Under the pieces are notes generated by a model that ran no database searches, was not told the DNA's origin, and saw nothing but the letters and a program-made list of their open reading frames with translations. A program made the translations under genes and the position numbers. A stretch of 22,428 nucleotides of DNA, taken from NCBI GenBank assembly GCA_964436975.1, contig CAYTET010000008.1:1-22428 (forward strand), written 5' to 3'. Source of the stretch: an uncultured Erysipelotrichaceae bacterium (GTDB taxonomy: Bacteria > Bacillota_I > Bacilli_A > Erysipelotrichales > Erysipelotrichaceae). Shown here piece after piece: positions 415 to 20,196 of this stretch; positions within the stretch are counted from its first letter, which is position 1, and each line of letters begins with the position of its first letter.

Positions 415-428
415 AAGGAAGCTTAAAG

Positions 429-1220
429 ATGTATTTCACCAAACAATTACATAACGGTTACAATTCCTATATCGATGCAGCTGTTGATGATATGGGAACC
501 CAGATGGATGTCGGCCTGCTGCTGCTGGATGCAGATCAGACCTATCAGATCCATGACGAGCATAAAGAGACCGCCGTTCTGCTGTTTGCCGGTGACGTAG
601 ATATCAATTATGGTGATTTAGCGGTGCGGGCCGTCAGACAGGACTGCTTCCATCAGGAAGCCTACTGCCTGCTGGCCAGCGCTGGCACTTCCATTTCGCT
701 GAAAGCGCATACACACTGTGAAATCTACCTGCAGCAGACAGTCAATGAAAACCACTACGCCCCGGTCATGTATACCCCGGACAAAGTCCAGGTCCAGCAT
801 GCCGGAGCCAACGGCGAGCTGATGGGCTGCATGAGACGGGAAATCAAGACCTTCTTCGATTTTGACAATGCGCCTTTCTCCAATATGGTGTTAGGCGAAG
901 TGCTCAACTATCCCGGCAAGTGGTCATCCTATCCGCCGCATCATCATCCCCAGCCGGAAGTCTATTTCTACCGCTTCGATCATCCGCAGGGCTTCGGGGC
1001 CGGATTTGCCAACGGGCAGATCTACCAGACCGGCCAGAATGGACTTTCCGTCATCAACAACGGCTTCCATTCCCAGGTGGCCGCTCCGGGCTATGCGATG
1101 TGCTATGCCTGGGGAATCCGCCATCTTGACGGCAATCCCTGGCAGAAGACCCGGATTGATGATCCGGAACATGAATGGCTCTGGCAGGCTGATGCCAACG
1201 AGCATATTTATAAAGGCTGA
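429..1220 (+). CDS. iolB: 5-deoxy-glucuronate isomerase
   Basis: 263 aa. The cupin-type signature [20 protein letters not shown] and the overall length match the IolB/KduI family. There is an AAAAGGAAG RBS-like sequence upstream, and the gene sits between iolE-like and iolD. Confidence 0.85.
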
Positions 1221-1240
1221 GCGCCGAAAGGAGAATAAGG

Positions 1241-3169: not shown

Positions 3170-3189
3170 AAAAAGGGAGATACACAAAT

Positions 3190-6182: not shown

Positions 6183-7301
6183 ATGAGCAGAATCGAACTA
6201 AAGCACATTGATAAATTCTACGGTGAAAACCATGTTCTGCGCGATCTCAATCTGACTATCGAAGACGGCGACTTCATGACGCTGCTGGGTCCGTCAGGCT
6301 GTGGAAAGACCACGACATTAAGAGTTATTTCCGGTTTGGAAGAGCCGCAGAATGGTACAATGACTATAGACGGTGTTGAGATGATCAATGCCGCCGATGC
6401 ATACTTTGCCGAGCCCAGCAAAAGAGGGCTGAATCTGGTTTTCCAGTCTTATGCCCTGTGGCCGCACATGACGGTCAAGGAGAATATCGCCTTTGGTCTG
6501 AAGATTCAGAAACTGCCTAAGGCTGAAGTTGAAGCCCGCGTCAAGGATGCGCTGCGGATGATGCGGATCGAGGAATACATCGACCGCTATCCCAACGAAC
6601 TTTCCGGCGGCCAGCAGCAGCGTGTCGCTATTGCCCGCGCTGTGGCCTCCAATCCCAAGCTGCTGCTGCTGGATGAGCCTTTGAGCAATCTGGACGCCCG
6701 GCTGCGCATTGACATGCGCTCGGAGCTGCAGCGGCTGCATCATGAATTGAAGACGACAATTATCTATGTCACCCATGACCAGGTCGAAGCTCTGACCATG
6801 TCAACCAAGATTGCCCTGTTCAAAGAGGGTGAACTGAGTCAGGTGGCCACGCCCATGGAGCTGTACCGCAACCCGATTGACCTGCAGGCCGCCGATTTCA
6901 TCGGCAACCCGCGGATCAACTTCTTAAAAGGCGATGCGGAAATGAAGGGCGGCAAGCTGCATGTTCACTGCGAACTGCAGGATTACGTCTTTGACAAGGA
7001 AGACATGACCGATGAGCCGATTCCAGAAGGAAACTTTGCGGTAGTGGTAGCCATCCGGCCGGAGCAGGTTCACATTGAACAGCAGGCCAGTGCGGACACC
7101 ATGCCGGTTGAGGTTTATGCTTCCCAGCCGGCCGGTTCGGAAACCCTGGTTTCCTTAAGAGCCGGTTCATCGGATTTCTTATCCAAGGAGATTGGTCTGG
7201 CGGAATATAAGATCGGCCAGCAGGTCAATGTCAGAGTCAATCCCAAGCGCGTCAATATCTATGATGCCGCTTCAACCCGTTTGATCAAACGCGCTCAGTA
7301 A
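6183..7301 (+). CDS. ABC transporter ATP-binding protein (MalK/FbpC/PotA-like, with a C-terminal TOBE-like domain)
   Basis: Walker [10 protein letters not shown], signature [14 protein letters not shown], Walker [13 protein letters not shown], and H-loop THDQ. A roughly 130-aa C-terminal regulatory/OB-like extension is present. Confidence 0.9.
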
Positions 7302-7400: not shown

Positions 7401-8639
7401 ATGAAGAAGTTTAGTGTTCTGTTAGTTGTTGCCATGATGCTGCTGACGGCTCTGTCCGGCTGCACATTTGGCACCGGCACCGGCGGCAAGACCGTTGATG
7501 CCCAGTTGGGTCCTATCTACGATGATTACAGTGATATGACCGATGAGCAGCTTTATGAATTAGCCCAGAAAGAGGGCGGCCAGATCAATATCTATGCCAC
7601 CTCTTCCAAGATGTTGAAAGAGGAAGAACCTTTTGAAACATTGTATCCGGGTCTGGATGTTGTCGTTACCGACTTAGACCAGGACGAAGTTCTGCAGAAG
7701 GCCGTTACCGAGCATAAGACCGGAAATATCACCGGTGATGTTCTGCAGGCCAAAGATGTCAACGGCGACGTTTTCTACAACTATTATGAGGAAGGCATTG
7801 TTGAGACATTCTATCCTAAAGATCTGTGCGCCTATATTGACGAAGATCTGCTGAAGTATGGTTATCCGCTGTATGCCGGCGAAGCTTTCTGGTTCTATAA
7901 CACCGAAGCTTTCCCTGACGGCTCCCCGCTGACCAACTGGTGGCAGCTGCTTGAGACCAATGCCGACGGCACCCAGAAGTTTATCATCTACACCAAGGAA
8001 ATCGGCCAGGAAACGTCTTATCTGTCCCTGTTTGCCAGTTTCATTGTCAATTCCGATCAGATGGCCGCAGCCTACAAGGAAGAATACGGCAAGGATCTGG
8101 AATACACCTATGATGCTTCGGCCTTTGATTTTGAAGCTCCGAAGAACAATGCCGGTGTCGAATTCTTATGGCGCTTCAGCCAGCTGAAGATGACATTCAT
8201 CGGCGATGGTGATGAATTGGTCTTAGCCGTCAATAACGGCAAGAGCACCGAGCATCCTACTGTTGCGTTATGCTCAGCCGGCAAGCTGGAAAACCGTGAT
8301 AAATCCGGTTATGCCATTGCCTGGTGCACCAATCTGAAGCCTTATACAGGTCTGAAGTATTGCGAATATCTGTATGTTGTCAAAGGCTGTGACAACCCGG
8401 CCGGCGCCCGTCTGTTCATCCGCTATATCACGGGTTCAGGCGATGACGGCAGCGGTTTGAAGCCGTTTACCAAGGTTGGCAACTGGCCGGTCCGCAGTGA
8501 TGTCAAGGATAAGAAGAATGAGATCACCCTTGATGAGGCCGGTGCTATTGATGCCGATCTGAAGAGCATCTATGATCAGTTCATTGATACTCAGGATATG
8601 TGGAATTACTGGCTGGATAAGAATCCCAATATGAAATAA
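7401..8639 (+). CDS. ABC transporter substrate-binding lipoprotein (family-1, iron(III)/AfuA-like fold)
   Basis: The signal peptide has a lipobox (LTALSGC) followed by a Gly/Thr linker. QINIYATSS...YPGLDVVVTDL resembles the N-terminal lobe of Fbp/Afu/thiamine-type binding proteins. It is the last gene of the permease-ATPase-SBP unit. Confidence 0.8.
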   Translation: MKKFSVLLVVAMMLLTALSGCTFGTGTGGKTVDAQLGPIYDDYSDMTDEQLYELAQKEGGQINIYATSSKMLKEEEPFETLYPGLDVVVTDLDQDEVLQKAVTEHKTGNITGDVLQAKDVNGDVFYNYYEEGIVETFYPKDLCAYIDEDLLKYGYPLYAGEAFWFYNTEAFPDGSPLTNWWQLLETNADGTQKFIIYTKEIGQETSYLSLFASFIVNSDQMAAAYKEEYGKDLEYTYDASAFDFEAPKNNAGVEFLWRFSQLKMTFIGDGDELVLAVNNGKSTEHPTVALCSAGKLENRDKSGYAIAWCTNLKPYTGLKYCEYLYVVKGCDNPAGARLFIRYITGSGDDGSGLKPFTKVGNWPVRSDVKDKKNEITLDEAGAIDADLKSIYDQFIDTQDMWNYWLDKNPNMK

Positions 8640-8715: not shown

Positions 8716-9306
8716 ATGGTAAAAAGAGTCGATAAAGGCAACCAGTCTTCCGCAAGAGAGAAGACGGAAACCTTCAAAGAGAAATGGACACGGCGGGGCA
8801 AAAAGTTTTTGGGCATCTTTGCGTTTACGGAAAACGGCAAGCCTAAAAGCAGCCTTTTGATTTACACCTTCTGTCTGAGCTTTGTCTTTGTGGTGCTGCT
8901 GATAGTGGCCTTCTGGTTTCTTTCGGAAGCCCAGAACGCCTATCTTACGGCGCTGCCGGTTTTCTGGACCAATCTGGCCGTATCTTTGGGCATGAGTGCT
9001 TTCTGCATGCTGACCGGCTATATAATGCACCACTTTATGAAGGACAAGCGGCTGCTGTTTGTGACTTATGTCTGGCTGGCGGTCTATGATGTTGTTACTA
9101 TCATTGCCCAGGCTATCATGCTGGCCAGTGAACCGGGCGGCTTTGGCATCTTCATGACCTTCTTTGTCTGGGTTGCCATCATTCCGGTAATATGCGGACT
9201 GTTTTTCTTCTACTGGCTGTTCAAGCGTGACTACAAGCCGCCGGTAGAACCCGGACCGACTGATCCGGTGGCAGAGACAATGAATAAATATGTCAATCAC
9301 AGGTAA
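8716..9306 (+). CDS. Hypothetical integral membrane protein (4 predicted TM helices, Lys-rich cytoplasmic N-terminus)
   Basis: Four hydrophobic segments: LLIYTFCLSFVFVVLLIVAFWFL, LPVFWTNLAVSLGMSAFCMLTGYIM, LLFVTYVWLAVYDVVTIIAQAIML and IFMTFFVWVAIIPVICGLFFFYWLF. AGGAGA lies about 12 nt upstream. The stop is 3 nt before the next gene. I recognise no family. Confidence 0.55.
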   Translation: MVKRVDKGNQSSAREKTETFKEKWTRRGKKFLGIFAFTENGKPKSSLLIYTFCLSFVFVVLLIVAFWFLSEAQNAYLTALPVFWTNLAVSLGMSAFCMLTGYIMHHFMKDKRLLFVTYVWLAVYDVVTIIAQAIMLASEPGGFGIFMTFFVWVAIIPVICGLFFFYWLFKRDYKPPVEPGPTDPVAETMNKYVNHR

Positions 9307-9309
9307 GAT

Positions 9310-10275
9310 ATGTTAAAAGTGCATTTTATCAATGTCGCCGAAGGCGATGCAACTTTATTTGAATTCAGTCAGCCTGACGGCATCTACCGTCTGCTGATTG
9401 ATGACGGCCATGCCCAGCTGGAACCGACTTCCGGCTCGGCCCGCAATACCGCCCTGCAGTATCTGCAGAACAGGCAGATCAGCCATCTTGACGCGCTGGT
9501 CATCACCCATCTGCATCTGGATCACTTCGGGGCCACGGCTGCTTTAGCCGAAAACATCCGGATTGATGATGTCTATGCTTCTTATTTCCCCCCCCGGGCC
9601 GATTCCTACATTGAAAATGCGGATCAGCCGGATAAGGAAAGACGCAAGCTGCAGGACTGTCTTGATCTGTGGGCCCGCAACACGGCCGCTTTGCGCCAAG
9701 CCGGCAGCCGGCTGCACACGGTTGACCAGGACACCAATATTGCCACCGCCAACGGTCTGGATATCAGGCTTATCTGCCCGTCGGCGCTAGCCCTGCAGAT
9801 GCAGCGCAAGCTGTTTGATGACATGTATGCCGGCAAGCCGCTTCAAGATAAGAATATCTTCTGGGCATCTAAATCCCGCAATCCGGCTTCGCTGCGTACT
9901 GAAATTGTCTATGCCGGCCGCCGCATTGAAATGGCTGCCGACTGCTACGGGCGGATCTGGGAGAATGAGGAGCTGTTGCCCTGTGACATTCTGAAGATTC
10001 CGCATCATGCCGATGCCAAGTCACTGACCGCTAAGCTGGTGGACAAACTGCATCCGCGCTATGCGGTCGCCACCTGCGGCAAGGATTACATTGAGCGCAA
10101 AGACCGGCCTTCCGCCAAGATGATTGCTTATCTGACGGCGGTGGATACCCGGGTCTATTTTACGGATTCATTCGCTTTTAACGGCCAGCCTGCAAACGTT
10201 TGGCCGGCAGTGATTTTTACGATTGACGACGATGGCACAATAAAAGCCCCCCAGAGTGAAGGGAAGAAAGGATAA
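9310..10275 (+). CDS. MBL-fold metallo-hydrolase (ComEC-C-terminal-like / beta-lactamase superfamily II)
   Basis: The N-terminus VHFINVAEGDATLF...LLIDDG and the HxHxDH motif (VITHLHLDHFG) are typical of the family, as is the later KIPHHAD. Its stop is 2 nt before the start of the following HAD gene. Confidence 0.8.
   Translation: MLKVHFINVAEGDATLFEFSQPDGIYRLLIDDGHAQLEPTSGSARNTALQYLQNRQISHLDALVITHLHLDHFGATAALAENIRIDDVYASYFPPRADSYIENADQPDKERRKLQDCLDLWARNTAALRQAGSRLHTVDQDTNIATANGLDIRLICPSALALQMQRKLFDDMYAGKPLQDKNIFWASKSRNPASLRTEIVYAGRRIEMAADCYGRIWENEELLPCDILKIPHHADAKSLTAKLVDKLHPRYAVATCGKDYIERKDRPSAKMIAYLTAVDTRVYFTDSFAFNGQPANVWPAVIFTIDDDGTIKAPQSEGKKG
10191..10204. promoter_or_regulatory. Intragenic copy of the operator-like motif (TGCAAACGTTTGGC) near the 3' end of the MBL gene
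   Basis: The 13-mer CTGCAAACGTTTG (10190-10202) is identical to 4285-4297 and contains the same 10-bp perfect palindrome. It lies 76 bp upstream of the HAD gene start at 10278. It also encodes PANVW, so chance cannot be excluded. Confidence 0.3.
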
Positions 10276-10277
10276 CC

Positions 10278-11030
10278 ATGATTACTACGGTGATGTTTGA
10301 TATGGGCGGAACGCTCGAGGATATCTGTGTTGATGAAGCCTCTAAGCAGGCCGCTAACAGGCAGCTTTATAATATTCTGCTGGACTGCGGCATGGCGGCT
10401 GATACCGACCCGGCGGTTCTGCGCCAGCAGACTGAAAAAGGCTGGATCGACTATGGCTGTTACCGCGACAGCGTTGATGTCGAACTGAAGCCGGAGCATA
10501 TCTGGTGCGATTATGTACTGAAGGGCTTTGACGTCGATATGGCCAAAGTCAAGGCTAACAGCGAAAGAATCGCCAAGATGTGGGAATTAACTTATTATCA
10601 CCGTTCGCTCAGACCGCGCGTGGCGGAAATGCTGGAAGGTCTGCAGTCATTAGGCCTGCAGCTGGGCGTCATCAGCAATACGGCCGCCATGTACCAGGTC
10701 TTCTCTTCGCTGCAGGAGTACGGCATCCGCGATTATTTCAAGGATGTGACCCTGTCATCGGTGACCGGACTGCGCAAGCCCTGCCCCGACATCTTTGAAG
10801 TGTCCCTGCACCAGCTGCAGGCTTCAGCGGATGAGTGCTTCTATGTGGGCGATACCATTTCCCGGGATATTGTCGGTTCCAAGCGGGCCGGCTTTGCCGG
10901 AGCCATCCAGATCTATTCCCATCTGACGGCCATGAAGGATATCGCGGATAAATACGAGTTCAAGCCTGACTATGTCGTCGAAGACATCTATGATGTCTAC
11001 CCGCTGCTGAAAAAAGTCTTAGGCAAATAA
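10278..11030 (+). CDS. HAD-superfamily hydrolase, subfamily IA-like (paralogue A)
   Basis: Motif I FDMGGTL (nucleophile Asp8, Gly at +2), motif II GVISNT, motif III RKP, and motif IV YVGDTISRD. An alpha-helical cap insert lies between motifs I and II. Confidence 0.85.
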   Translation: MITTVMFDMGGTLEDICVDEASKQAANRQLYNILLDCGMAADTDPAVLRQQTEKGWIDYGCYRDSVDVELKPEHIWCDYVLKGFDVDMAKVKANSERIAKMWELTYYHRSLRPRVAEMLEGLQSLGLQLGVISNTAAMYQVFSSLQEYGIRDYFKDVTLSSVTGLRKPCPDIFEVSLHQLQASADECFYVGDTISRDIVGSKRAGFAGAIQIYSHLTAMKDIADKYEFKPDYVVEDIYDVYPLLKKVLGK

Positions 11031-11050
11031 AAACCCGTGGTTACGGGTTT
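11031..11050. terminator. Bidirectional hairpin between the convergent HAD-A and lacI-family genes
   Basis: AAACCCGT (11031-11038), loop GGTT, then ACGGGTTT (11043-11050). On the minus strand it is followed by TTTTTATTT, making a good terminator for the regulator. It overlaps the regulator stop codon. Confidence 0.6.
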
Positions 11051-12081
11051 GAAGGCTGATCCGGCTTAGGATAGCCGGCTAACGGAGCGCAGGTCGACCG
11101 CTTCATCAGCGAGGGCATCAGGATCCGGTGGGTATAGCCGTCCAGATTATTCTGGATCTTGTCGACCAGGATATTGACGCATACGGATGCCAGCATTTTG
11201 ACCGGCTGTTCGATAGTGGACAGGTTGATCCGCGGCAGGGAGCTGTCCCGGATATTGTCAAAGCCTAAAAGGGAAAGATCTTCCGGGATCCGCAGCCCGA
11301 CTTCCTCAGCGGCCTGCATGACGCCAAAGGCGTTGGTATCGGTTGAGGCAAAGACGGCCGTGTAATTGCGGGGCTGGCTGAACATCTGCTTGGCCAGCAG
11401 ATAGCCGTATTTAGTGGATGAAGAAGTGAAAGTGTTGTTGCAGTACTGCGGATTCAGGCCTAAATCCTTGCAGGCCGCCGCATAGCCTTCCGCTCTGAGC
11501 TGATGGGTTATGCTGGCCTTGCGCTGGCCGAAGTACAGAATACGGCGGTGGCCCAGGCTGTACAGATATTCCACACCCATGTAGGCCCCGCGGAAATTAT
11601 CCACGGAAACATAGTTTTCCGGAGCATCGCGCATGTTCTCCCCGACAAAGACAGTGGGGACCTGGGCAATCCGCTCGCACAGATTGTCATAGCTTTCCGG
11701 TCCGACCGGCACCAGGATGATGCCGTCGACCTGCCGGCCGACCATCAGTTCAAAAAGGCTGTTCTCCTGCTGGGGGTCATAAGCCGAATTGCACAGAATG
11801 ATATTGTAACCCATGTTGCGGGCCTGCCGGTCGATATGATAGGCCAGTTCGGACATATAGGGGTTGTTGACCCCGGGCAGAATAAGACCCAGCAGCTTGG
11901 TGCTTTTGATGACCATGGCCCGGGCCACGGTATTGACCGTGTAGTTCATGTCCTTGCAGGCGGCAATAATGCGCTGGTAGGCATCCGGACTGACATTGGC
12001 ACTGCCGGACAAGGCCCGTGAGACCGTTGAATAGGATACGCCGGCCTGTTTGGCCACGTCCTTGATGGTAATTCGTTTCAT
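11041..12081 (-). CDS. LacI-family transcriptional regulator
   Basis: The N-terminal HTH is MKRITIKDVAKQAGVSYSTVSRALSG...VSPDAYQRI, followed by a periplasmic-binding-protein-like sugar-binding core. The start at 12081 (GGAGC RBS upstream) is preferred over the ORF-track start at 12162, which would add 27 non-conserved residues. Confidence 0.9.
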   Translation of the reverse strand: MKRITIKDVAKQAGVSYSTVSRALSGSANVSPDAYQRIIAACKDMNYTVNTVARAMVIKSTKLLGLILPGVNNPYMSELAYHIDRQARNMGYNIILCNSAYDPQQENSLFELMVGRQVDGIILVPVGPESYDNLCERIAQVPTVFVGENMRDAPENYVSVDNFRGAYMGVEYLYSLGHRRILYFGQRKASITHQLRAEGYAAACKDLGLNPQYCNNTFTSSSTKYGYLLAKQMFSQPRNYTAVFASTDTNAFGVMQAAEEVGLRIPEDLSLLGFDNIRDSSLPRINLSTIEQPVKMLASVCVNILVDKIQNNLDGYTHRILMPSLMKRSTCAPLAGYPKPDQPSNP

Positions 12082-12280
12082 GATAGCTCCTGTTATGCAA
12101 CAAAATGCACACGATAAACAGATTTTATGACATTTATTTGCATAATACAAGAGCCCCTGCAAATTGTTTCATTGCTCAAAACGGCCCAAAAAGGCCGTAA
12201 ATACCGTATTTTACGCTATAAAACAAGCTTGAAAAAGAACAGTCATGCCATAAATCAGGCATCTATTATGACTGAATTTG

Positions 12281-12296
12281 ATAAAAACGTTTTCGT
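12281..12296. promoter_or_regulatory. LacI-family operator-like site ATAAAAACGTTTTCGT upstream of the HAD operon
   Basis: The perfect 10-bp palindrome AAAACGTTTT (12284-12293) lies 30 bp upstream of the HAD-B start codon, in the divergent regulator/operon intergenic region. It shares the AAACGTTT core with the sites at 4286 and 10191. Confidence 0.4.
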
Positions 12297-12322
12297 TAAA
12301 CCACTTCAGGAGGGGGAAAGTT

Positions 12323-13078
12323 ATGATTAAAGCCGTCTTGTTTGACCTGGGAGGAACCCTGCACACGGCCAGCAGTCCGGCCGGCCGGCCGGAATGGTTT
12401 GCCCGCCGGCTGATTGACCGGCTGGCTGATTATGGCATCATTATTGATGTTTCCACCGCCCAGATGGCCGAAATACTGCATAATAACAGTGAGGAATACA
12501 AGCATGCCAGCGAAATTGATCTCAAGGAACTGCCGGCCGCCCGTATCTGGAGCGAATATTACCTGCGCCAGTTCAACATCAGTGAAAAGACCCTGGCTCC
12601 GATTGCCGAAGAACTGAGTTTTATTTATGATTACGAAAGACCGCTGGTCATGCGCCGGCCCCATCTGAATGAAACGATGAGCGGGTTAGCGGCAATGGGC
12701 ATAAGAATGGGCATGATTTCCAATATCATCTCCCGGTCGGTCGTTTCCCACTTTCTGATGGAATATGACATCGAAAAGTATATGGAGTGCATCGTCATGT
12801 CTTCGGTGACCGGTATCCGCAAGCCTTCGGCTGAAATATTCCGGGTTGCGGAAAAGGACATGGACCTGGCTCCCGAGGAGATGGCCTATGTCGGCGATAC
12901 GATTTCGCGGGATGTGCGCGGCGTGCGCAATGCCGGCTGGAAGATGATGATCCAGATCAACAACCCGGCGATTGCCTTTCGGGATGCCGGTCTGGACAAG
13001 GATGCGTATAAGCCTGACTATATGATCAGCGATCTCAGTGAAGTCGTTGAAATCATCCGTCAGGCCAATCAGCAGTAA
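12323..13078 (+). CDS. HAD-superfamily hydrolase (paralogue B)
   Basis: Motifs FDLGGTL, GMISNI, RKP and YVGDTISRD. The start at 12323 (MIKAVLFDLGGTL) is chosen because AGGAGGGGG lies 7-15 nt upstream and motif I then sits at the usual N-terminal position. Its closest relative in the window is paralogue A. Confidence 0.85.
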   Translation: MIKAVLFDLGGTLHTASSPAGRPEWFARRLIDRLADYGIIIDVSTAQMAEILHNNSEEYKHASEIDLKELPAARIWSEYYLRQFNISEKTLAPIAEELSFIYDYERPLVMRRPHLNETMSGLAAMGIRMGMISNIISRSVVSHFLMEYDIEKYMECIVMSSVTGIRKPSAEIFRVAEKDMDLAPEEMAYVGDTISRDVRGVRNAGWKMMIQINNPAIAFRDAGLDKDAYKPDYMISDLSEVVEIIRQANQQ

Positions 13079-13114
13079 AAAACATGGCAGCCAGATAAAT
13101 AGGGAGGTAAAACC

Positions 13115-13849
13115 ATGAAAAACAATATTGATACCATTTTCTTCGATGTCGGCAATACCCTGCGTTATGTTGTTCCCGATGCCGCCTTTTCGGCCCAGGC
13201 CGATCAGCAGCTGATGGAGCTGGTCAAGACAACCGCCAGCCACGAAGAGTTTTTTGCCGAACTGAATGCCAACTGGAAGAAATACCGCAAATGGGCCAAG
13301 GACAATCTGCTGGATGTCTCCGAGATGGAACTGTGGATGCAGTTTCTGCTGCCGGAATATGATCCGGCCATCATTGCCCCCAATGCCCCCCGGCTGACCC
13401 GGCTGTGGCGCGACCATGACGGCCGCCGGGTGCCGCATGATGATGTGGATTCTACATTGAGAGAACTGACCAACCGCGGCTACAAACTGGGCATCATTGC
13501 CAACACCATTACCGAAACCGAGATTCCGGACTGGATGTGCCATGACCAGGTTGCCGACTGTTTCAAGACGGTCATTCTGTCCTCCAAGGTCAGACTGCGC
13601 AAGCCTGATCCGGCCATCTATCTGCTGGGCGCCCGCTGCATCGATTCCAAACCGGAAGACTGCGCCTATGTGGGCGACAATGCCGTCCGGGATGTGGACG
13701 GGGCGGTTGATTCCGGCTATGGCGCCATGATCCTGTTTGAGTTTGAAGGTGTGGCCGTTGACCGGGACGGGGTATCACCCAATCACCAGCCGGATTACAA
13801 GATCGGCCATATCGGCGATCTGCTCGATCTGTTCGGGCCCAGAGGTTAA
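13115..13849 (+). CDS. HAD-superfamily hydrolase (paralogue C)
   Basis: Motifs FDVGNTL, GIIANT (Ala where the motif II Ser/Thr is expected), RKPDPAIY and YVGDNAVRD. RBS GGGAGG. It shares RGYKLGII and the YRKW cap motif with paralogues D and E. Confidence 0.85.
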   Translation: MKNNIDTIFFDVGNTLRYVVPDAAFSAQADQQLMELVKTTASHEEFFAELNANWKKYRKWAKDNLLDVSEMELWMQFLLPEYDPAIIAPNAPRLTRLWRDHDGRRVPHDDVDSTLRELTNRGYKLGIIANTITETEIPDWMCHDQVADCFKTVILSSKVRLRKPDPAIYLLGARCIDSKPEDCAYVGDNAVRDVDGAVDSGYGAMILFEFEGVAVDRDGVSPNHQPDYKIGHIGDLLDLFGPRG

Positions 13850-13852
13850 ATA

Positions 13853-14575
13853 ATGAAAGACATCAAGGGTGTTTTCTTTGATTTAGGCGGGACGCTGCGG
13901 ATTGCCCAGGAAGTTCCCGAACATATTCAGAAAGCCAAAAGGGCCATGGCTGATCTGGCCGGCGTTACTGATGAAAATGCCTTTTTGGAGATGATTGATA
14001 AACGCTATGAGCCCTACCGCAAATGGGCCATGACGGAATATAAGGAATGCGGGGATTTTGATCTGTGGCATATCTGGCTGCTGCCGGACATGCCGGAAGA
14101 AGAACTGCGGCCGGTCTGCCACCAGCTGACTTACCAGTACCGCCAGGTCAAAGGCCTGCGCCATCTGGTCACCCATGGTCTTGAAGTCATCAAAACGCTG
14201 CACCAGCGCGGCTACAAGCTGGGCATCATTTCCAATCTGATCGGTGAAAACGAAGTCGCCGACTGGCTCAGGGATGATGATCTGGCCCAATATTTTGATT
14301 CGGTAGTCCTTTCATCCATCTGCCATATCCGCAAGCCGGATCCGGCTATCTATGATATCGGCTGTGCCGAATTAGGTCTGAAGCCGGGCCAGTGCGCTTC
14401 GGTGGCCGACAATCTGAGCCGGGATTTTACCGGGGCTAAGGCGGCCGGCATCGGCGTCAATATTCTGTTCATCAGTCCGGAAAAGCTGGCCGGCAAAACG
14501 ATAACTGAAGAAAACCGCCCGGACATTATCATCAATGATTTCCTTGAATTGCTGGACCTGCCTTTTCTGCAGTAA
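13853..14575 (+). CDS. HAD-superfamily hydrolase (paralogue D)
   Basis: Motifs FDLGGTL, GIISNL, RKPDPAIY and SVADNLSRD. The start is 3 nt after the stop of paralogue C. Confidence 0.85.
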   Translation: MKDIKGVFFDLGGTLRIAQEVPEHIQKAKRAMADLAGVTDENAFLEMIDKRYEPYRKWAMTEYKECGDFDLWHIWLLPDMPEEELRPVCHQLTYQYRQVKGLRHLVTHGLEVIKTLHQRGYKLGIISNLIGENEVADWLRDDDLAQYFDSVVLSSICHIRKPDPAIYDIGCAELGLKPGQCASVADNLSRDFTGAKAAGIGVNILFISPEKLAGKTITEENRPDIIINDFLELLDLPFLQ

Positions 14576-14589
14576 GGAGAAGAGATAAA

Positions 14590-15318
14590 ATGGCTGATAT
14601 AAACACGCTGTTCTTCGATTTAGGCGATACCTTCCGCGTCATCCGTCATGATGATGAATACTCCCGGGCGGCCCGGGCGCTGATCTGTGAAAAACTGGGG
14701 GTTACCGAAGATCCGGATAAGTTCTATCATGAAGTCATCGAGCCGCGCTATGACAAATACCGGCAGTGGGCTTTGACTTATTACTGTGAAGCCCCGGAAA
14801 AAGTGCTCTGGACCCGCTGGCTGGCGTATGATTATCCTAAGGATGTCGTCGAGGCGGCGGCTTCCGAGCTGACTTTTGCCTACCGGCGCACCAAAGGGGA
14901 GCGCGTGGTTACCGAAGGCGGCATTGAAACGGTTAAGGAGCTGTTTGCCCGCGGCTATAAGCTGGGCATCATCTCCGATCTGGTCGGTGTCCATGAGGTT
15001 GACCAGTGGCTTGACCACGACCAGCTGCGTCCTTATTTCAAGACGGTGCAGCAGTCCTCGCTCTGTCTGATCCGCAAGCCCCATCCGGCGATTTACTATT
15101 ATGCCATGAATGAGATCGGCTCATCCGGGGAGCAGTGCTGCTTTGTCGGCGATAACCTTAACCGCGATATCATCGGGGCCAAGGCGGCCGGCATCGGCAT
15201 GACCATCGGGGTGCGCTATCCGGGCAAAAAAGAGCAGGAAATCACCCCGGAAAATAAGCCTGATCAGTTTATAACGCATTTTTCGCAGCTGCTGGATATT
15301 TTCCCAGCGCGCGGTTAG
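14590..15318 (+). CDS. HAD-superfamily hydrolase (paralogue E)
   Basis: Motifs FDLGDTF, GIISDL, RKPHPAIY and FVGDNLNRD. RBS AAGGAGAAG. Confidence 0.85.
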   Translation: MADINTLFFDLGDTFRVIRHDDEYSRAARALICEKLGVTEDPDKFYHEVIEPRYDKYRQWALTYYCEAPEKVLWTRWLAYDYPKDVVEAAASELTFAYRRTKGERVVTEGGIETVKELFARGYKLGIISDLVGVHEVDQWLDHDQLRPYFKTVQQSSLCLIRKPHPAIYYYAMNEIGSSGEQCCFVGDNLNRDIIGAKAAGIGMTIGVRYPGKKEQEITPENKPDQFITHFSQLLDIFPARG

Positions 15319-15332: not shown

Positions 15333-16898
15333 ATGGAAAAAGAAATGAATCATGGCGGTGCGGCCCTGGCCAAAGCCGTCCGTAAAGCTTATGAGCAGAA
15401 TCAGACGGATTACTCACTGGCCCCGCTGTGTCTGGTTGATGAAAACGACCAGCCGGTGGGCAAAATAAAAGACGGCGATGCGGTTATCTTCTGCTGCCGG
15501 CGGGGCGAAAGGGAAGTTGAACTGACCGAAGCCTTCACCCAGCCTGATTTTGACAAGTTTGACCGGCCGTATCTGAGTCAGCTGCAGTTCGGCATTCTGA
15601 CGATGTATCATGAAAAATTCAAGAATCTGCCGATTGCCTTTGCCCCGGAGAAGGTGGTCATGCCGCTGGCCCAGGTCATAGCCCAGGCCGGCCTGACCCA
15701 GTTTCACTGCTCGGAATCCGAAAAGTTTGCCCATGTAACCTTCTTCTTCAACGGCGGCTATAACCAGCCCTTTGAAAAAGAGACGGATACCTGTGTGCCT
15801 TCACCCAAGGGCGTGCCGTTTGACACCGTGCCGGAATTAAGCCTGCCGGCCGTCGCCGCCAAGGTGGAAGAAGCCGTTGATACCGGCTATGATTTCATTC
15901 TGACTAACTTTGCCAACGGCGATGTTATCGGCCATACTTCCAACAGCGATGCCAAACTGCTGGCCGCCGCGGCCATCAGCAAGTATGTTGATAAAGTCGC
16001 CCATTATGCGCAGGATCACGGCTATTTGGTTGCCATCACGGCTGACCACGGCAACATTGAAACCCTGCGGACAGAAGCCGGCAAGCCGCATGTGGCCCAT
16101 ACCTGCAATCTGGTGCCCTTTATCGTGCTGGATCCGCAGCACCGGGAGATCAAGCTGCGGGACGGCTCCCTGAAGGATGTTGCCCCGACAGTGCTGTCGG
16201 TGCTGGGTCTGGATGCCCCGGCGGAAATGAGCGGACAGTCCCTGATTGAAACGGCTGATATCCATAACAAGAAAATGATACTGATTATTCTGGATGGCTG
16301 GGGTCTGGGCAGCCAGGATGACAATGACGCCATCTATCTGGCGGATACACCGGGCTGGGACAAACTGATGGCGGATTATCCGCATTCCAGCTTAGCCGCC
16401 AGCGGCCTGTATGTCGGCCTGCAGGACGGCAAGCCGGGCAACTCCGAAGCCGGCCACTGCAATATGGGCGCCGGCCGGGTCGTCGAGCAGGATGATGTCC
16501 GCATGGACAATGCCATCAAAGACGGCTCTTTCAAGACCAATCCGGTTTTCCTGAAGCTGATCGACCATGCCAAACAGTGCGGCAGCCTGCATCTGATTGC
16601 GCTGCTGACCGAAAAGTCCAGCCACGGCTGCATCGCTTATCCGCTGATGCTGGCGGAAATGGCTAAAGAAGTTCCCCATGTCTATTTCCACATCATCTTT
16701 GACGGCCGCAGCACCGAACCGGGCAGTGCCCCGGCGCTGCTGGAAAAGCTGGATGGCCAACTGGCCCAGATTGGAACCGGCCTGGTGGTTGACGGCATCG
16801 GCCGCGGCATTATTCTGGACCGCGACGGCAACTATGCCCGCATTGAAACGGGCTACCGGGAACTGACCGAAGGTAAGGGGATCCCTTATCATTTATAG
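15333..16898 (+). CDS. Circularly permuted homologue of 2,3-bisphosphoglycerate-independent phosphoglycerate mutase (alkaline-phosphatase superfamily phosphomutase; substrate unknown)
   Basis: 521 aa. Residues 1-305 align with the C-terminal ~290 aa of canonical iPGM through the blocks DGDAVIFCCRRGER, ESEKFAHVTFFFNGG, NFANGDVIGHT, ITADHGN, KPHVAHTCNLVPF and LKDVAPTVLSVLGL. Residues 313-521 align with the canonical N-terminal ~225 aa through KKMILIILDGWG, GNSEAGHCNMGAGR, SLHLIALL, FDGRS and GRGIILDRD. RBS AGGAGG. Confidence 0.85.
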   Translation: MEKEMNHGGAALAKAVRKAYEQNQTDYSLAPLCLVDENDQPVGKIKDGDAVIFCCRRGEREVELTEAFTQPDFDKFDRPYLSQLQFGILTMYHEKFKNLPIAFAPEKVVMPLAQVIAQAGLTQFHCSESEKFAHVTFFFNGGYNQPFEKETDTCVPSPKGVPFDTVPELSLPAVAAKVEEAVDTGYDFILTNFANGDVIGHTSNSDAKLLAAAAISKYVDKVAHYAQDHGYLVAITADHGNIETLRTEAGKPHVAHTCNLVPFIVLDPQHREIKLRDGSLKDVAPTVLSVLGLDAPAEMSGQSLIETADIHNKKMILIILDGWGLGSQDDNDAIYLADTPGWDKLMADYPHSSLAASGLYVGLQDGKPGNSEAGHCNMGAGRVVEQDDVRMDNAIKDGSFKTNPVFLKLIDHAKQCGSLHLIALLTEKSSHGCIAYPLMLAEMAKEVPHVYFHIIFDGRSTEPGSAPALLEKLDGQLAQIGTGLVVDGIGRGIILDRDGNYARIETGYRELTEGKGIPYHL

Positions 16899-16922: not shown

Positions 16923-17645
16923 ATGAATAGTGCAGTAGATTTATCCAGTCTGACCCTGACGCCCTGGGAGATTATCATCCGGCTGGCGGGGGCCATGGTA
17001 ATAGGGGCCATCATCGGCACCGAGCGGGAATACACCCACCGGCCGGCCGGCATGCGGACCCATATGCTGGTGGCGCTGGGATCATGCGCCGTAATGGTGA
17101 CCAGCCAGCTGATGTTTGTGCAGTATCACGCTTTCGGGGCTTCCCCGGATCCGGCCCGGCTGCCGGCGCAGGTTATCGCCGGGGTTGGCTTTTTAGGCGC
17201 CGGCACGATTTTAAGGGACGGCACCTCCATCAAGGGTCTGACCACGGCGGCCAGTGTCTGGGCGGTGGCCTGTCTGGGCATTGCCATCGGCGCCGGCTAT
17301 TATATTCTGGCGGTGGCCGGTACGGCCTGCATGCTGATAACGCTGACTTTCTTTGAGTGGCTGCAGAAAAAGCTGATCCACAGCCGCTATGAGACCTATC
17401 TGTTTCTGGTGCAGTCAACCAATGTCGTGGTGACCTTAGCCCAGATCAACAAGCTGGCCATCGAAGTCGAAGCTTCCGTCAGCAGCATCCAGGTCAATGA
17501 AATAAACGATAACGGCAACTACAGCATCAACTTCCGGACTAATTTTTCCGGCCGGCATGCCTCCACGCGGATGCAGCAGTTCTTAATGGATCTGACCAGT
17601 GATGAATGCACGGTCTCCATTAAATCGGAGCAGATCAGACTGTAG
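16923..17645 (+). CDS. MgtC/SapB-family membrane protein
   Basis: The N-terminal block IIRLAGAMVIGAIIGTEREYTHRPAGMRTHMLVALGS is the family signature. It has 4-5 TM helices followed by a soluble C-terminal domain. RBS AAAGGAGAA. Confidence 0.85.
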   Translation: MNSAVDLSSLTLTPWEIIIRLAGAMVIGAIIGTEREYTHRPAGMRTHMLVALGSCAVMVTSQLMFVQYHAFGASPDPARLPAQVIAGVGFLGAGTILRDGTSIKGLTTAASVWAVACLGIAIGAGYYILAVAGTACMLITLTFFEWLQKKLIHSRYETYLFLVQSTNVVVTLAQINKLAIEVEASVSSIQVNEINDNGNYSINFRTNFSGRHASTRMQQFLMDLTSDECTVSIKSEQIRL

Positions 17646-17737: not shown

Positions 17738-18622
17738 ATGAAGCAGCAATATGATTTAATGCTTGTCGGACCGGCTTCCCGGGACGAAAATATCGACTAT
17801 ACCGGGGCTGTCGACAAGTCCATCGGCGGGGCCGTGACGTTCTGCTCGGCTTCAGCCCAGGCGGCCAGCGGCAGTGTTTTTGCGGCAGTTGTCGCCGCCC
17901 CCAATGAGCCGGATGTCATGGATTCCATTATTCTGGATGATGATGACAAGATGCTGATTCCGTCTTCGGTAACCACCTCGATCCGCAACCAGTACTTCAC
18001 GGCGGACCGGGAAAGACGCGAGTCCAAGTGCATTGCCCAGTCTGATCCGGTCACCCCGGATAAGATTCCGGCCGGCCATTTCAAGATGTATCATTTAGCC
18101 GGACTTTTATACGGCGATTTCCCCAACGAGCTTATTGTTGATCTGGCATCCAAGGGCCAGCTGGCCGGGGATGCCCAGGGCTTTTTAAGACACAATGAAA
18201 ACGGGGCGATGGTTTTCCATGACTGGGCCGACAAAAAGGAAATGCTGAAGCACTTTGCCTTTCTGAAAACAGACGCTTTGGAAGCCCTGACTCTGACCGG
18301 CTTTGAAGACCGGGCCAAGGCAGCTGAACAGCTGTACCAGTGGGGGGCTAAAGAAGTTATGGTTTCCCATAACAGCGAGATAATGGTCTATGATGGCAAC
18401 AAGGTCTATACCTGCCCGATCAAAGCCCGCAACCTGTCCGGCCGGACCGGCCGGGGTGACACGACGACCGGGGCTTATCTGGCCCGCCGGCTGGACGGTG
18501 ATGACGTTGAAACAGCGCTGCTGTATGCGACCGCCTGTGTTTCTTTGAAGATGGAAAAAGTCGGCGTGTTCAGCCACAGCCGGCAGGATGTCTACGATTA
18601 TATTGCCCAGTTTTACCGCTGA
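17738..18622 (+). CDS. PfkB-family carbohydrate kinase (divergent)
   Basis: 294 aa. It has an N-terminal LMLVGPASRDENIDY...SIGGAV beta-strand/GG motif and a C-terminal PfkB signature-2-like GRTGRGDTTTGAYLA (the GxGD anion hole). RBS AAAGGAGA. Confidence 0.8.
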   Translation: MKQQYDLMLVGPASRDENIDYTGAVDKSIGGAVTFCSASAQAASGSVFAAVVAAPNEPDVMDSIILDDDDKMLIPSSVTTSIRNQYFTADRERRESKCIAQSDPVTPDKIPAGHFKMYHLAGLLYGDFPNELIVDLASKGQLAGDAQGFLRHNENGAMVFHDWADKKEMLKHFAFLKTDALEALTLTGFEDRAKAAEQLYQWGAKEVMVSHNSEIMVYDGNKVYTCPIKARNLSGRTGRGDTTTGAYLARRLDGDDVETALLYATACVSLKMEKVGVFSHSRQDVYDYIAQFYR

Positions 18623-18808: not shown

Positions 18809-20196
18809 ATGAAGGCGTGGGAATTGGAACGTCAGAATATGGACCACAGTGTACCGGTTCATATGGCCGACAACAACGAAGAAATATGGGAAGAGCAGAG
18901 CAATGGGCCGGAGCAGGCTCAGGATGCCACCATTAAGAATTACTGGGCCAGCAAGGTCCCGGGCTCACGGGCTTCCGAATCGATTATCATCGCCGCTGTC
19001 CAGGCCATGGAAAACCGCGGCTATTCTGTTAAAAACAGCGAAGACATGTGGCTGGCCGGACTGAGTGCGGTGGCCGGCGAAGACGTTGTCAGCATGCACA
19101 AAAACTACTATAAGATCATGCAGGCCTGCCTGCAGGCGGAAAAGGATGAAAGTTCGCCGTACTGGCAGCAGCATTTCTATGATACTTTTGAAGAATACGA
19201 AAAGGCCGTCAAATTTCCCCAGGCCCGCCCGGTTGACATGGGCAATATGCTGGTTGACAAGATCGAAGCCGGCTGGCTGGGCCAGATTATCGGCGGAGCC
19301 TACGGCACCTGTCTGGAAGGGTATACCACCGACAACATCATGAAAGCCTATCCGCATCTGGATATCTACCAGCGCAAGCCGAATACCTATAACGATGACA
19401 TTACTTATGAACTGGCCCTGCTGCTGGCTTATGAGGAGAACGGCAAAGCAACGACATCACGCGACATTGCCGACGAATGGGTCAGCCGGATTGCCTTTGG
19501 CTGGTCAGCCGAGGATATGGCGCTGCGCAATCTGCGCTGCGGTATGATGCCGCCGGAGTCCGGCCGTTTCAACAACCCTTATTATGAGTGGATCGGGGCC
19601 CAGATGCGCGGGGCGGTTTTGGGCCAGCTTTATCCGGGTGATCCGTACAATGCGGCCAAAGCGGCCTGGCAGGACGGCATTATCTCCCATGCCCGCAACG
19701 GTGTCTTGGGCGAAGTGTTCAATGCCATCATGGTGGCCATGGCTTTCTACCAGAATGATCTAGACAGCTGGTCAAGGATGCAGTGGCCCTGATGCCGGCC
19801 GACAGCGAATACGGCCAGGTCGTCCGGTTTGCTTTGGAGCAGTGTGAAAACAGCGCCGACTGGCTGACCGCCTGGCGGCCCTGCGAAAAGAAGTACGAGC
19901 GCTATAACTGGGTGCATGCCTATCCCAATGCCTGCGCCGAAGTGGTGGCCTTATGGTTCTGCCAGGATGATTTCACCAAACTGCTGGTTATTTCCGGCGG
20001 CTGCGGCCAGGACGTTGACTGCAATGCGGCTCAGATTGCTACCGTATGGGCAACCCGCAAGGGCAAACAGGCTATCCCGGCCTACTGGACCGAGCCTATC
20101 GGCGACCATCTGGATACCTATGTCCGCGGCTTAAAGCAGCTGAGCATCCGCCAGCTGGCCGTCCGGACGGCGGCTGTGGCAAACCACCTGAAATAA
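18809..20196 (+). pseudogene. ADP-ribosylglycohydrolase-family gene interrupted by a frameshift near 19760
   Basis: ORF 18809-19792 carries the N-terminal family block (WLGQIIGGAYGTCLEG). ORF 19783-20196, in a different frame, carries the C-terminal block (GGCGQDVDCNAAQIATVWA). The downstream frame is open from 19759 and reads RQLVKDAVALMPADSEY, continuing naturally from ...AFYQND in the upstream frame. Confidence 0.65.

Follow-up and report, generated by a model that had tools for sequence, protein, structure and literature searches.

An array of HAD-IA paralogs with glycine at the Asp+2 position in a gene island of gut bacteria, and its possible role in inositol phosphate use

Five related genes in a stretch of DNA from an uncultured Erysipelotrichaceae bacterium (the window; all 22,428 nucleotides of positions 1 to 22,428 of contig CAYTET010000008.1, assembly GCA_964436975.1) encode proteins of HAD subfamily IA in which Gly replaces the second, acid/base Asp of motif I (Asp+2). 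The genes belong to an undescribed gene island that is present in many gut bacteria; we found no paper on the DxG HAD family or on the island. The explanation we favor, and to which we give an even chance of being right, is that the five proteins dephosphorylate imported inositol polyphosphates successively and in a position-specific manner, and so feed inositol catabolism. We infer the substrate from the gene neighbors alone, and likewise infer the order of the steps, the role of the Gly and the direction of the associated kinase.

The five HAD genes and their motif I

The genes, here called HAD_A (10278-11030), HAD_B (12323-13078), HAD_C (13115-13849), HAD_D (13853-14575) and HAD_E (14590-15318), all lie on the plus strand, and HAD_B starts with the ATG at 12323, with a ribosome-binding site, GGAGGGGG, 7 nt before it. 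The Pfam HAD models (PF00702 / PF13419) match all five ORFs with E-values of 1e-15 to 1e-18, and all five products are members of the HAD superfamily, the sole deviation listed being the Ala of motif II in HAD_C (Ser in A, B, D and E). With the NCBIfam model TIGR01549, for which the threshold for HAD-IA assignment is 23.3 bits, copies A to E score 46.3, 36.8, 29.0, 35.6 and 42.5 bits, and in the AF2 model of HAD_D (pLDDT 96) a helical C1 cap (helices 22-99) is inserted between strand 1 and the core; these scores and this model place all five copies in subfamily IA. Each cap has 8-15 conserved Arg, Lys or His residues. None of the five has a signal peptide, motif I begins at residue 8-12, and, judged by sequence, the five are cytoplasmic HAD-IA paralogs.

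Motif I reads FDMGGTL, FDLGGTL, FDVGNTL, FDLGGTL and FDLGDTF in A to E, respectively. Because phmmer aligns the FDLGGTL of HAD_B with the FFDLDDTL of PH1655 (2hoq), and the FFDLGGTL of HAD_D with the FFDLDNTL of NANP (2gfh), Gly occupies the Asp+2 position; the canonical DxDxT acid/base set is thus absent from the five copies and from all of their orthologs. The nucleophilic Asp, the Thr at +4, the motif III Lys (in RKP) and both motif IV Asp residues (D8, T12, K167, D192 and D197) are invariant. These findings agree with the original prediction, which had listed the same ORFs and exactly these motif I strings and had held the motif to be unusual. They also agree with its division of the copies into two subclades: pairwise identity is 31% for A-B, 45% for D-E and 34% for D-C, as against 25-28% across the subclades, and the strings it had quoted (VTGxRKP, YVGDTISRD, RGYKLGII, RKPxPAIY and YR(K/Q)W) are all found in the copies.

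Each copy represents a separate ortholog group, with members in 44-73 genomes at species level that are 55-75% identical. Within all five groups, across ~70 species of gut and rumen Clostridia, Gly+2 is invariant; FDMGGTL, for instance, is found in 44/44 orthologs of HAD_A. When clustered at 50% identity, the DxG HAD-IA clade comprises no fewer than 258 clusters, and DxGxT occurs in ~112 motif I matches among 150 family representatives. On this comparative evidence, Gly+2 is the hallmark of an uncharacterized HAD-IA clade, and the five-copy array is not a chance pattern. That the catalytic HAD residues other than Asp+2 are kept in ~70 species (with Ala in motif II of HAD_C) points to active enzymes, probably with five non-redundant roles.

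Gene neighborhood and regulation

The order of a LacI-family regulator gene followed by B-C-D-E and a gene for a permuted iPGM-like protein is fixed in 92/92 related loci, this being the number with enough sequence 3' of HAD_E; co-occurrence of the array with the permuted mutase, which the original prediction had raised, thus holds across genomes. In the window the circularly permuted iPGM-like metalloenzyme gene (15333-16898, plus strand) comes directly after HAD_E. Fourteen active-site residues of this protein do not vary, and Ser stands in place of D154 in 66/66 sequences; since every 2- or 3-phosphoglycerate-binding residue except D154 is retained, the protein could be an ordinary phosphoglycerate mutase. 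It is followed on the same strand by genes for an accessory MgtC-family membrane protein (16923-17645; found in 26/56 loci) and for a homolog, with a PfkB fold, of the pyrophosphate (PPi)-dependent kinase TM0415 (17738-18622). More generally, a PfkB gene lies 3' of the mutase gene in 41/56 loci and a membrane H+-pyrophosphatase (PPase) gene in 26/56; membrane H+-PPase is encoded in 34 related loci, and no PPase gene is present in the operon of the window itself.

The PfkB protein matches TM0415 with an E-value of 2e-37. Judged by the residue data for the TM0415-type enzyme (PMC5931981), it retains the inositol-binding residues D11, I76, N78, S89, L116, Q141 and R145, the PPi residues K171, R229, R232 and M266, the RxGRGD motif (RTGRGD in 53/53 orthologs) and the catalytic D234, the only replacement among the aligned residues being F221 to Ile. 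These residues identify it as a TM0415-type kinase, with the activity predicted accordingly. A pair of PfkB and TIM-barrel genes recurs in 7 related loci.

HAD_A ends an importer operon, all on the plus strand, which here follows iol-type genes in the order IolE-B-D-G. The window edge leaves the 3' part of a gene for an IolE-like inosose dehydratase (1-414; Pfam AP_endonuc_2; the full 300-aa gene is present in L086), which is followed by genes for an IolB-like protein of the KduI/IolB family (429-1220; PF04962, E 6.5e-46), an IolD-like thiamine-diphosphate enzyme (1241-3169; TPP_enzyme N, M and C domains) and an IolG-like inositol dehydrogenase of the GFO/IDH/MocA type (3190-4221). IolG homologs occur in 13 related loci (13/59 of those with the permease), directly upstream of the permease gene in the gene orders inspected. 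IolC and IolJ are missing from the iol string of this genome, which instead includes transketolase, LarA-like and malic-enzyme-like genes. The upstream operon is headed by GAPDH-like and PGK genes.

The importer itself consists of a fused two-domain ABC permease (4331-6157; 608 aa, BPD_transp_1 twice), an ATPase with a TOBE_2 domain (6183-7301) and a very divergent lipoprotein solute-binding protein, or SBP (7401-8639), with no Pfam match and a lipobox, LSGC, read from the sequence. In the AF2 model of the SBP (pLDDT 85), Foldseek finds a fold like those of IbpS, MctA (Mg-citrate), FbpA and PhnS, and on this model the importer is an FbpA/MctA-like ABC system, a type that carries anions or metal chelates. 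The invariant residues of the SBP include many Tyr, Trp, Asp and Glu but only ~10 Lys or Arg, a composition that would equally suit a neutral polyol or a metal complex as ligand. Next come genes for TM196, a four-helix membrane protein of unassigned family (8716-9306; no Pfam match; in 107/164 related loci), and for an accessory metallo-beta-lactamase-fold (MBL) hydrolase (9310-10275; in 39/164 loci). TM196 lies between the SBP and MBL/HAD_A in the gene orders inspected, with one exception (L063).

The gene for the LacI-family regulator (11041-12081, minus strand; 346 aa) is divergent from the HAD operon and convergent with HAD_A, from which it is separated by a hairpin (11031-11050) that is terminator-like on the minus strand. 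A LacI-type operator-like palindrome, TTTGATAAAAACGTTTTCGTTAAA, is located at 12277-12300, upstream of HAD_B, and two sister sites lie in the promoter of the operon whose last gene is HAD_A (1286-1305 and 1470-1490 of L086). The operator core, AAACGTTT, is present in the LacI/HAD_B intergenic region of 60/65 related loci. As had been proposed for the array, it is thus plausible from these sites that one LacI-type regulator controls both the HAD operon and the importer operon.

Further genes are found in independent, distant loci that likewise encode DxG HADs and homologous importers. L088 and L091 have permease homologs that are 37-41% identical; L088 encodes two PiT carriers and an RxGRGD PfkB, and L091 encodes PiT-PhoU-PiT, a PHP protein, a metallophosphoesterase, an IolE-like TIM barrel and a beta-propeller phytase (PF02333), the phytase gene being seen in this locus only. 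A soluble PPase adjoins PfkB in L089, which also encodes an EEP-HAD fusion, and L094 has six HAD domains, two mutases and an IolG-like gene. Fusions of a HAD with an IolE-like TIM barrel also exist. The Dysosmobacter locus adjoins pstB-phoU-phoPR.

Candidate substrates and chemistry

The importer type, the iol genes, the inositol kinase homolog, the phosphate and pyrophosphate genes, the extra phosphoesterases and the phytase of one distant locus provide the context for inositol phosphates. In the route we propose, the LacI regulon would comprise the HADs, the ABC importer, the permuted iPGM-like mutase/phosphatase, the TM0415-type kinase and IolG/E/D/B, and its likely substrate would be phytate from plant food, or lower myo-inositol phosphates that remain once the phytases of other gut microbes have acted. 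The five HADs would be Mg2+-dependent phosphoryl-transfer enzymes that act through an aspartyl-phosphate intermediate and remove five phosphates, the proton otherwise donated by Asp+2 coming from a neighboring phosphate of the substrate, for which the Gly would make room. The mutase would then shift the last, neighborless phosphate, and the kinase, running in reverse (InsP + Pi -> inositol + PPi) and pulled by pyrophosphatase, would remove it, so that the freed ring could enter inositol fermentation. Of the two options that the original prediction had offered, successive steps on one multiply substituted substrate is by gene context the better fit.

Parts of this proposal sit less easily. Gly+2 would not be predicted for an inositol phosphate phosphatase, because an inositol alkoxide has to be protonated as it leaves; for the same reason a substitute acid must be postulated, and to invoke substrate-assisted catalysis here is ad hoc. 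The suggestion of the original prediction that the leaving group requires no protonation gains no support from these data. That Gly+2 is compatible with phosphatase activity is nevertheless shown by YihX. Moreover, because the number of HAD domains varies from 3 to 6 among loci, with an ACDE set in 17, the sum of five plus one phosphates is not general, and only operation in reverse would explain why a dephosphorylation route includes a kinase.

The same genes could instead serve the dephosphorylation of some other organophosphate or of a set of unrelated sugar or acid phosphates (for example phosphoglycerate-type compounds, glycerophospho-inositol breakdown products or sugar bisphosphates), with the inositol genes incidental, as would accord with the retained phosphoglycerate-binding arginines of the permuted iPGM, the GAPDH-like and PGK genes, the presence of IolG in a minority of related loci, and MBL, PHP and EEP partners that could be phosphodiesterases. 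The Km of the kinase for inositol, furthermore, is 12 mM, and the authors of that work doubt that inositol is the true acceptor (PMC5931981). We nonetheless find this unlikely, because the links to inositol recur independently: the TM0415 acceptor pocket is fully retained, IolE/IolI-like TIM barrels adjoin the HAD or are fused with it, IolG-like genes are found in L094 and 13 other loci and a phytase in L091. In addition, the gene orders of related loci show no conserved nucleosidase, glycosidase or GlpQ-type gene within the island. Import of free inositol, its phosphorylation by the PPi-dependent kinase, and action of the HADs and mutase on phosphorylated intermediates of a variant pathway without IolC and IolJ would account for the make-up of the iol string and for the sugar-like pocket residues of the SBP; the related Dysosmobacter welbionis, for one, ferments free myo-inositol without IolJ (PMC13311982). 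However, five to six distinct phosphatases are hard to justify for the intermediates of one pathway, phosphorylation followed by dephosphorylation would be futile, the modeled SBP fold is of an anion/metal-chelate rather than a sugar class, and the PiT/PhoU exporters and phytase of distant loci suggest that much phosphate has to be handled, which together make this possibility very unlikely.

Two further readings concern the chemistry. The DxG HADs might be phosphotransferases rather than hydrolases, passing a long-lived aspartyl phosphate to Pi or another acceptor to yield PPi, from which an H+-pyrophosphatase would generate ion-motive force and thereby conserve the bond energy of the crowded phosphates of phytate. 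Gly+2 is invariant across a clade that retains every other catalytic residue, related operons encode PPi partners (the TM0415-type kinase, membrane H+-PPase in those 34 loci, soluble PPase by PfkB in L089), and a PPi-hydrolyzing enzyme co-expressed with a PPi-consuming kinase makes little sense unless PPi is a product; by analogy with the P-type ATPases (DKTGT), an aspartyl phosphate without a general base could be long-lived. Against this, the leaving group still has to be protonated when the phosphoenzyme forms from an ester, YihX, which also has Gly+2, is by annotation a plain hydrolase, the window's operon lacks a PPase, the PiT/PhoU carriers of distant loci suggest release of free Pi, and we know of no HAD-IA enzyme that forms PPi; we regard phosphotransfer as quite unlikely. 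The wider scheme, in which the DxG HADs and a reversed PPi-dependent kinase pass phytate phosphates to Pi, PPi drives an operon-encoded H+- or Na+-pumping pyrophosphatase, and gut Clostridia harvest energy, carbon and phosphorus, is in our view also a long shot; if true, it would add a sixth structural class to the enzymes that degrade phytate and reveal a novel mode of substrate-level energy conservation. HADs lacking Asp+2 include dehalogenases and phosphonatase, and L-2-haloacid dehalogenases are among the structural neighbors of the HAD_D model, but non-phosphoryl chemistry, such as C-X cleavage of a dehalogenase-, phosphonatase- or azetidine-hydrolase-like kind, is extremely improbable. 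Scores against L-2-haloacid dehalogenase (TIGR01428) are 22-49 bits versus a cut-off of 125.4, motif I is DxG rather than DxYGT, and the Mg-binding motif IV, (G/A)DxxxxD or more fully (G/A)Dxxx(R)D, which dehalogenases lack, is invariant; PhnX (DxAGT with a Schiff-base cap Lys) is absent among the NCBIfam matches listed, no cap Lys is invariant in the five copies, and all of the neighbors handle phosphate.

Comparison with known families and systems

The original interpretation, then, survives in its loss of Asp+2, its subclades, its plausible control by one regulator and, as the better-fitting option, its successive steps, and gives way in the dehalogenase, phosphonatase and YihX-type placements it had suggested. 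Two other placements it had named also fail: scores are 58-73 bits for REG-2-like HADs (TIGR02252; cut-off 155.2) and 26-59 bits for the soluble epoxide hydrolase N-terminal-like phosphatases (TIGR02247; cut-off 125.4). It had rightly named YihX, an alpha-D-glucose-1-phosphate phosphatase of HAD-IA, as a Gly+2 enzyme: the E. coli protein begins MLYIFDLGNVIV. YihX resembles A to E in Gly+2, fold class, motif III Lys and motif IV Asp, but is 18-23% identical to them, has a shorter cap and Val in place of the Thr at +4, and is encoded by a single gene, neither in an array nor in such an island; as regards family membership (NF006991, at most 34 bits versus an equivalog cut-off of 295), only Gly+2 is in common.

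The best sequence and structure matches of the window HADs are with the TIGR02253 group (PH1655, PH0459, NANP (HDHD4) and YfnB), at phmmer E-values of 1e-9 to 1e-10, Foldseek E-values of ~1e-12, TM of ~0.6 and ~20% identity. Both have a four- to five-helix C1 cap, whereas that group has the canonical DxD (FFDLDDTL, FFDLDNTL) where the window HADs have DxG, and scores for TIGR02253 (CTE7) membership are 80-115 bits versus a cut-off of 169.75. P-type ATPases likewise form an aspartyl phosphate with no acid/base at +2, the phosphoenzyme being stable until a separate group activates water; unlike the window HADs, they are membrane pumps with Thr rather than Gly at +2, and the likeness is one of analogy only. 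In Thermotoga maritima, the TM0411-TM0416 cluster, in which the TM0415 kinase gene is next to that for the TM0416 TIM barrel, has a kinase of the same type with identical acceptor and PPi residues; to our knowledge it contains no HAD array, permuted iPGM or FbpA-like importer.

The closest functional counterparts are MINPP and the known phytases of the histidine acid, beta-propeller, cysteine/PTP-like and purple acid classes. A to E, whose fold is not one of the four known for phytases, may do the same job, stepwise dephosphorylation of InsP6. Known phytases, however, are secreted or periplasmic single enzymes, one of which does most of the steps, whereas here several predicted cytoplasmic HADs per locus would act behind an importer.

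Motif I and family placement of the five HAD copies

The five ORFs, HAD_A (10278–11030), HAD_B (12323–13078), HAD_C (13115–13849), HAD_D (13853–14575) and HAD_E (14590–15318), encode proteins of 240–251 aa, every one of which matched Pfam HAD models with E values of 1e-15 to 1e-18 and passed the cut-off of the NCBIfam HAD-IA model TIGR01549. From A to E, their motif I strings are FDMGGTL, FDLGGTL, FDVGNTL, FDLGGTL and FDLGDTF, exactly as listed in the original prediction, which had ascribed a DxGxT motif to every copy. In phmmer alignments these strings lie opposite FFDLDDTL of PH1655 (2hoq) and FFDLDNTL of NANP (2gfh); the register is therefore secure, and Gly replaces the general acid/base Asp. 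An alignment contradicting the predicted Gly at +2 was looked for, and a shifted register with Asp at that position was ruled out by the same two alignments together with the family-wide motif count. The nucleophilic Asp, the Thr at +4, the motif III Lys and both motif IV Asp residues are invariant in A–E. In copy C the motif II Ser/Thr is replaced by Ala (GIIANT), with a Thr two residues further on, and this Ala is kept in at least 95% of 73 orthologue sequences. The proposed division into two subclades is borne out by identities of 31% between A and B and of 34–45% among C, D and E. Each copy forms a separate orthologue group (55–75% identity) in which Gly at +2 is invariant. The genes from B to E are spaced by 3–36 nt, and a strong ribosome-binding site precedes B. 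Judged from their sequences, A–E are intact cytoplasmic HAD-IA enzymes that lack Asp at +2 and represent five non-redundant lineages.

Among curated NCBIfam models, only the generic HAD-IA model was reached, and no equivalog or subfamily. Scores against TIGR02253 were 80–115 bits (cut-off 169.75), and those against the REG-2-like, sEH-N-like, YihX, dehalogenase, PpaX and phosphoglycolate phosphatase models were all far under threshold, which removes the first four of these as the homes that had been suggested for the array. The AF2 model of D (pLDDT 96) has an ordinary HAD-IA core and a helical C1 cap, and Foldseek returned generic neighbours only, at ~20% identity (PH0459, PH1655, NANP, YfnB and haloacid dehalogenases). 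A search of 1.84 billion representative proteins with a profile built from the five copies recovered at least 258 sequence clusters at E ≤ 1e-30. Among the best 150 of these 258, ~112 motif I matches read DxGxT and DxD occurred in only one N-terminal motif, so that Gly at +2 emerges as the distinguishing mark of an unnamed HAD-IA clade of considerable size. By these profile scores the proteins belong to HAD-IA, yet to none of its described families. A metagenome scan for distant A-type copies gave close relatives only (53–66% identity), and thus added variants and no new lineages. Natural fusions of DxG HADs also occur (P0299, P0301 and P0323, of ~560–573 aa; P0272; P0254), the partner being an IolE/IolI-like TIM barrel, an endonuclease/exonuclease/phosphatase domain or a second, degenerate HAD domain that carries FDAGDIL and has lost motif IV.

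Composition, regulation and spread of the island

In an orthologue scan of one genome per species, D was found in 74 MAGs, placing the island in at least 74 species-level genomes; its carriers belong to the Oscillospiraceae, Christensenellales and Lachnospiraceae and come from guts or material of humans, mice, rabbits, ruminants, horses and chickens (birds). The order LacI(−), B-C-D-E is fixed across related loci. A neighbourhood profile had been proposed as a check on whether the array accompanies the permuted mutase, and it does: the circularly permuted iPGM-like gene (piPGM, 15333–16898) comes after E in 92/92 loci with enough sequence. Among 56 loci, the genes downstream of piPGM include a PfkB kinase in 41, MgtC in 26 and a membrane H+-pyrophosphatase (PF03030, ~700 aa) in 26. 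In many related operons (L083–L085, 14038–16152, and 32 of the loci L009–L082), the gene for this H+-translocating enzyme has MgtC on one side and the PPi-type kinase on the other, or comes right behind the kinase; it is absent from the window's own operon. Copy A always closes an importer module, in which a fused permease, an ATPase and a solute-binding protein are joined by a four-helix membrane protein and, in some loci, an MBL hydrolase. The membrane protein of the window (8716–9306) has 196 aa, four predicted helices and no Pfam family; it is kept in 107 of 164 related loci, its homologue standing between the solute-binding protein and MBL/HAD_A in the printed gene orders with one exception (L063). 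In other species, the importer was preceded by heterogeneous genes, among which no further conserved partner was found. The ADP-ribosylglycohydrolase, Bmp lipoprotein and nucleoside ABC genes downstream have no counterpart in 74 related genome loci and are therefore placed outside the system. The first of these (18809–20196) is broken into two ORFs by loss of a single A at ~19762 (CTAAGAC to CTAGAC). Contigs L001 and L003, identical apart from this, encode the intact product of 462 aa; the split reflects either pseudogene formation or an error of assembly.

An operator-like palindrome of LacI type, resembling TGAAAACGTTTTCG, is located at 12277–12300, 23 nt upstream of B. Two further TGAAAACGTTTTCG-like palindromes (1286–1305 and 1470–1490) lie in the promoter of a long iol/importer gene string on sequence L086. 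Because such palindromes stand upstream of both operons, the two seem to make up a single regulon. A 14-nt operator consensus, TGAAAACGTTTTCA, failed across species, with only 11/66 loci matching. An 8-nt core, AAACGTTT, is present in the LacI/HAD_B intergenic region of 60/65 related loci and almost absent elsewhere in 1.16 Mb. A hairpin with an 8-bp stem (11031–11050) sits precisely where the convergent HAD_A and LacI genes meet, with one stop codon on either side, and probably terminates both transcripts.

The long string (L086 1658–12981), which lies upstream of the window and overlaps its positions 1–4221, begins with GAPDH-like, PGK, split transketolase, LarA-like and malic-enzyme-like genes, continues with IolE, IolB, IolD and IolG, and in this genome leads into the importer; neither IolC nor IolJ was found in it. 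We speculate that the string may encode a modified form of inositol breakdown: transketolase would split 5-dehydro-2-deoxygluconate, and a C4 aldehyde would be oxidised to malate with a gain of ATP. As read from the gene arrangement, the HAD genes are co-transcribed with the importer, the PGM-like enzyme, the PPi-type kinase and inositol catabolic genes, and these are probably co-regulated.

The PfkB kinase (17738–18622) matched TM0415 of T. maritima with an E value of 2e-37. TM0415 is a pyrophosphate-dependent kinase that converts myo-inositol to Ins(1)P in vitro, with a Km for inositol of 12 mM, and its authors doubt that inositol is the true acceptor (PMC5931981). In an alignment read by eye, the window kinase keeps D11, I76, N78, S89, L116, Q141, R145, K171, R229, R232, D234 and M266 of TM0415 and the diagnostic RxGRGD, which reads RTGRGD in 53/53 orthologues. 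In piPGM, residues 10–305 correspond to model positions 211–504 and residues 312–519 to positions 3–213; all 14 of the catalytic and substrate-binding residues of B. stearothermophilus iPGM that were compared are kept, and D154 is Ser, invariantly so in 66 orthologues. Searches with the solute-binding protein sequence (7401–8639) gave no significant match in the PDB or Pfam, and a predicted structure was therefore used. The AF2 model (pLDDT 85) resembles IbpS, MctA (a Mg-citrate binder), FbpA/FutA and PhnS (a phosphonate binder), a predicted fold of the anion or metal-chelate class.

Distant clade members (30–35% identity) occur in loci with homologous importers (permease 37–41%, ATPase 45%, solute-binding protein 26%), and these related islands are loaded with extra phosphoesterases and proteins that handle phosphate or pyrophosphate. 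L088 combines an RpiR regulator, the importer, a HAD-HAD fusion and a HAD fused to an IolE-like TIM barrel with two PiT phosphate carriers, a PfkB with RSGRGD and an MBL hydrolase. L091 contains PiT-PhoU-PiT, the importer, a HAD-HAD fusion, PHP, a HAD, a TIM barrel, a metallophosphoesterase and a beta-propeller phytase (PF02333). An EEP-HAD_A fusion, MgtC, PfkB and a soluble pyrophosphatase are found in L089, and L094 holds an IolG-like gene, LacI, three HADs, a permuted iPGM, an archaeal-type PGM, a PRK-family kinase, a further HAD, the importer, a HAD-HAD fusion and a TIM barrel. In a Dysosmobacter genome the island adjoins pstB-phoU-phoPR. Human gut metagenome contigs L152–L173 have four HADs only (A, C, D and E), with no B and no nearby PfkB; their C-D-E-piPGM operon is inverted, right behind HAD_A, and a PHP phosphoesterase follows the LacI gene.

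A candidate route for imported inositol phosphates

From this context we give about even chances to a scheme in which imported inositol phosphates are dephosphorylated stepwise by A–E and then handled by the mutase and a reversed kinase. The imported compound would be a cyclitol bearing several phosphates, in the simplest case phytate or lower inositol phosphates, the latter being abundant in grain-fed guts, and A–E would remove its phosphates one position at a time. Each cap has 8–15 conserved basic residues, which could bind the remaining phosphates, and Gly at +2 might make room for a vicinal phosphate that also gives the proton. The last phosphate, having no neighbour, would be shifted by the mutase and taken off by the kinase in reverse. 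From textbook hydrolysis energies, we estimate this step to be a few kJ/mol uphill under standard conditions and feasible at high Pi with PPi held low by pyrophosphatase. The weakest links of the scheme are the identity of the substrate and the role of Gly.

The intact phosphoglycerate-binding site of the mutase would suit another organophosphate, such as a phosphoglycerate-type compound, as the substrate; given the repeated links to inositol, we regard this as rather unlikely. If the HADs instead passed phosphate to Pi, making PPi for the H+-pyrophosphatase, both Gly at +2 and the pyrophosphatase genes would find their best account, but such a transfer is without precedent among HAD-IA enzymes and we think it unlikely. 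Import of free inositol, with the HADs acting on phosphorylated intermediates of a variant inositol pathway, would fit the missing IolC and IolJ and the sugar-like residues of the solute-binding protein; as it leaves five to six phosphatases and the phosphate exporters without account, it seems quite improbable. Dehalogenase- or phosphonatase-like chemistry is contradicted by the Mg-binding motif IV and by every neighbouring gene, and we consider it highly improbable.

Significance and comparison with known systems

Phytate is the chief phosphorus store of seeds and a major dietary component. A 2025 review names Mitsuokella jalaludinii as the sole isolate from the human gut with known full phytate dephosphorylation, notes that faecal communities commonly achieve it, and asks for the missing degraders to be identified (PMC12482443). 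In the literature searched we found no HAD-type phytase and no cytoplasmic inositol phosphate route, including a multi-enzyme one fed by an importer, and the D. welbionis inositol paper (PMC13311982), without its supplements, does not mention the island genes. What is new here is a variant of HAD-IA enzymes inside an undescribed gene island. With importer, regulator, operator and enzyme set defined, the island is a concrete, testable candidate for gut phytate degradation; the system is common in gut Clostridia and sharply bounded, and, with its function inferred from context, bears on which gut bacteria degrade phytate. It ties the TM0415-type PPi-dependent kinase to a pathway, and should its function differ, it would still be a well-delimited, widespread regulon centred on phosphate and pyrophosphate. 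The DxG HAD-IA clade also offers a clean system for studying HAD chemistry with Gly in place of the textbook general acid/base.

Known phytases belong to four folds, and A–E to none of them. E. coli YihX, annotated as a glucose-1-phosphate phosphatase, likewise has Gly at +2, its sequence containing the DLGNV motif named in the original prediction, but it is only 18–23% identical to A–E and has the Gly alone in common with them. The PH1655/NANP group shares the fold of A–E, whereas its motif is DxD instead of DxG.
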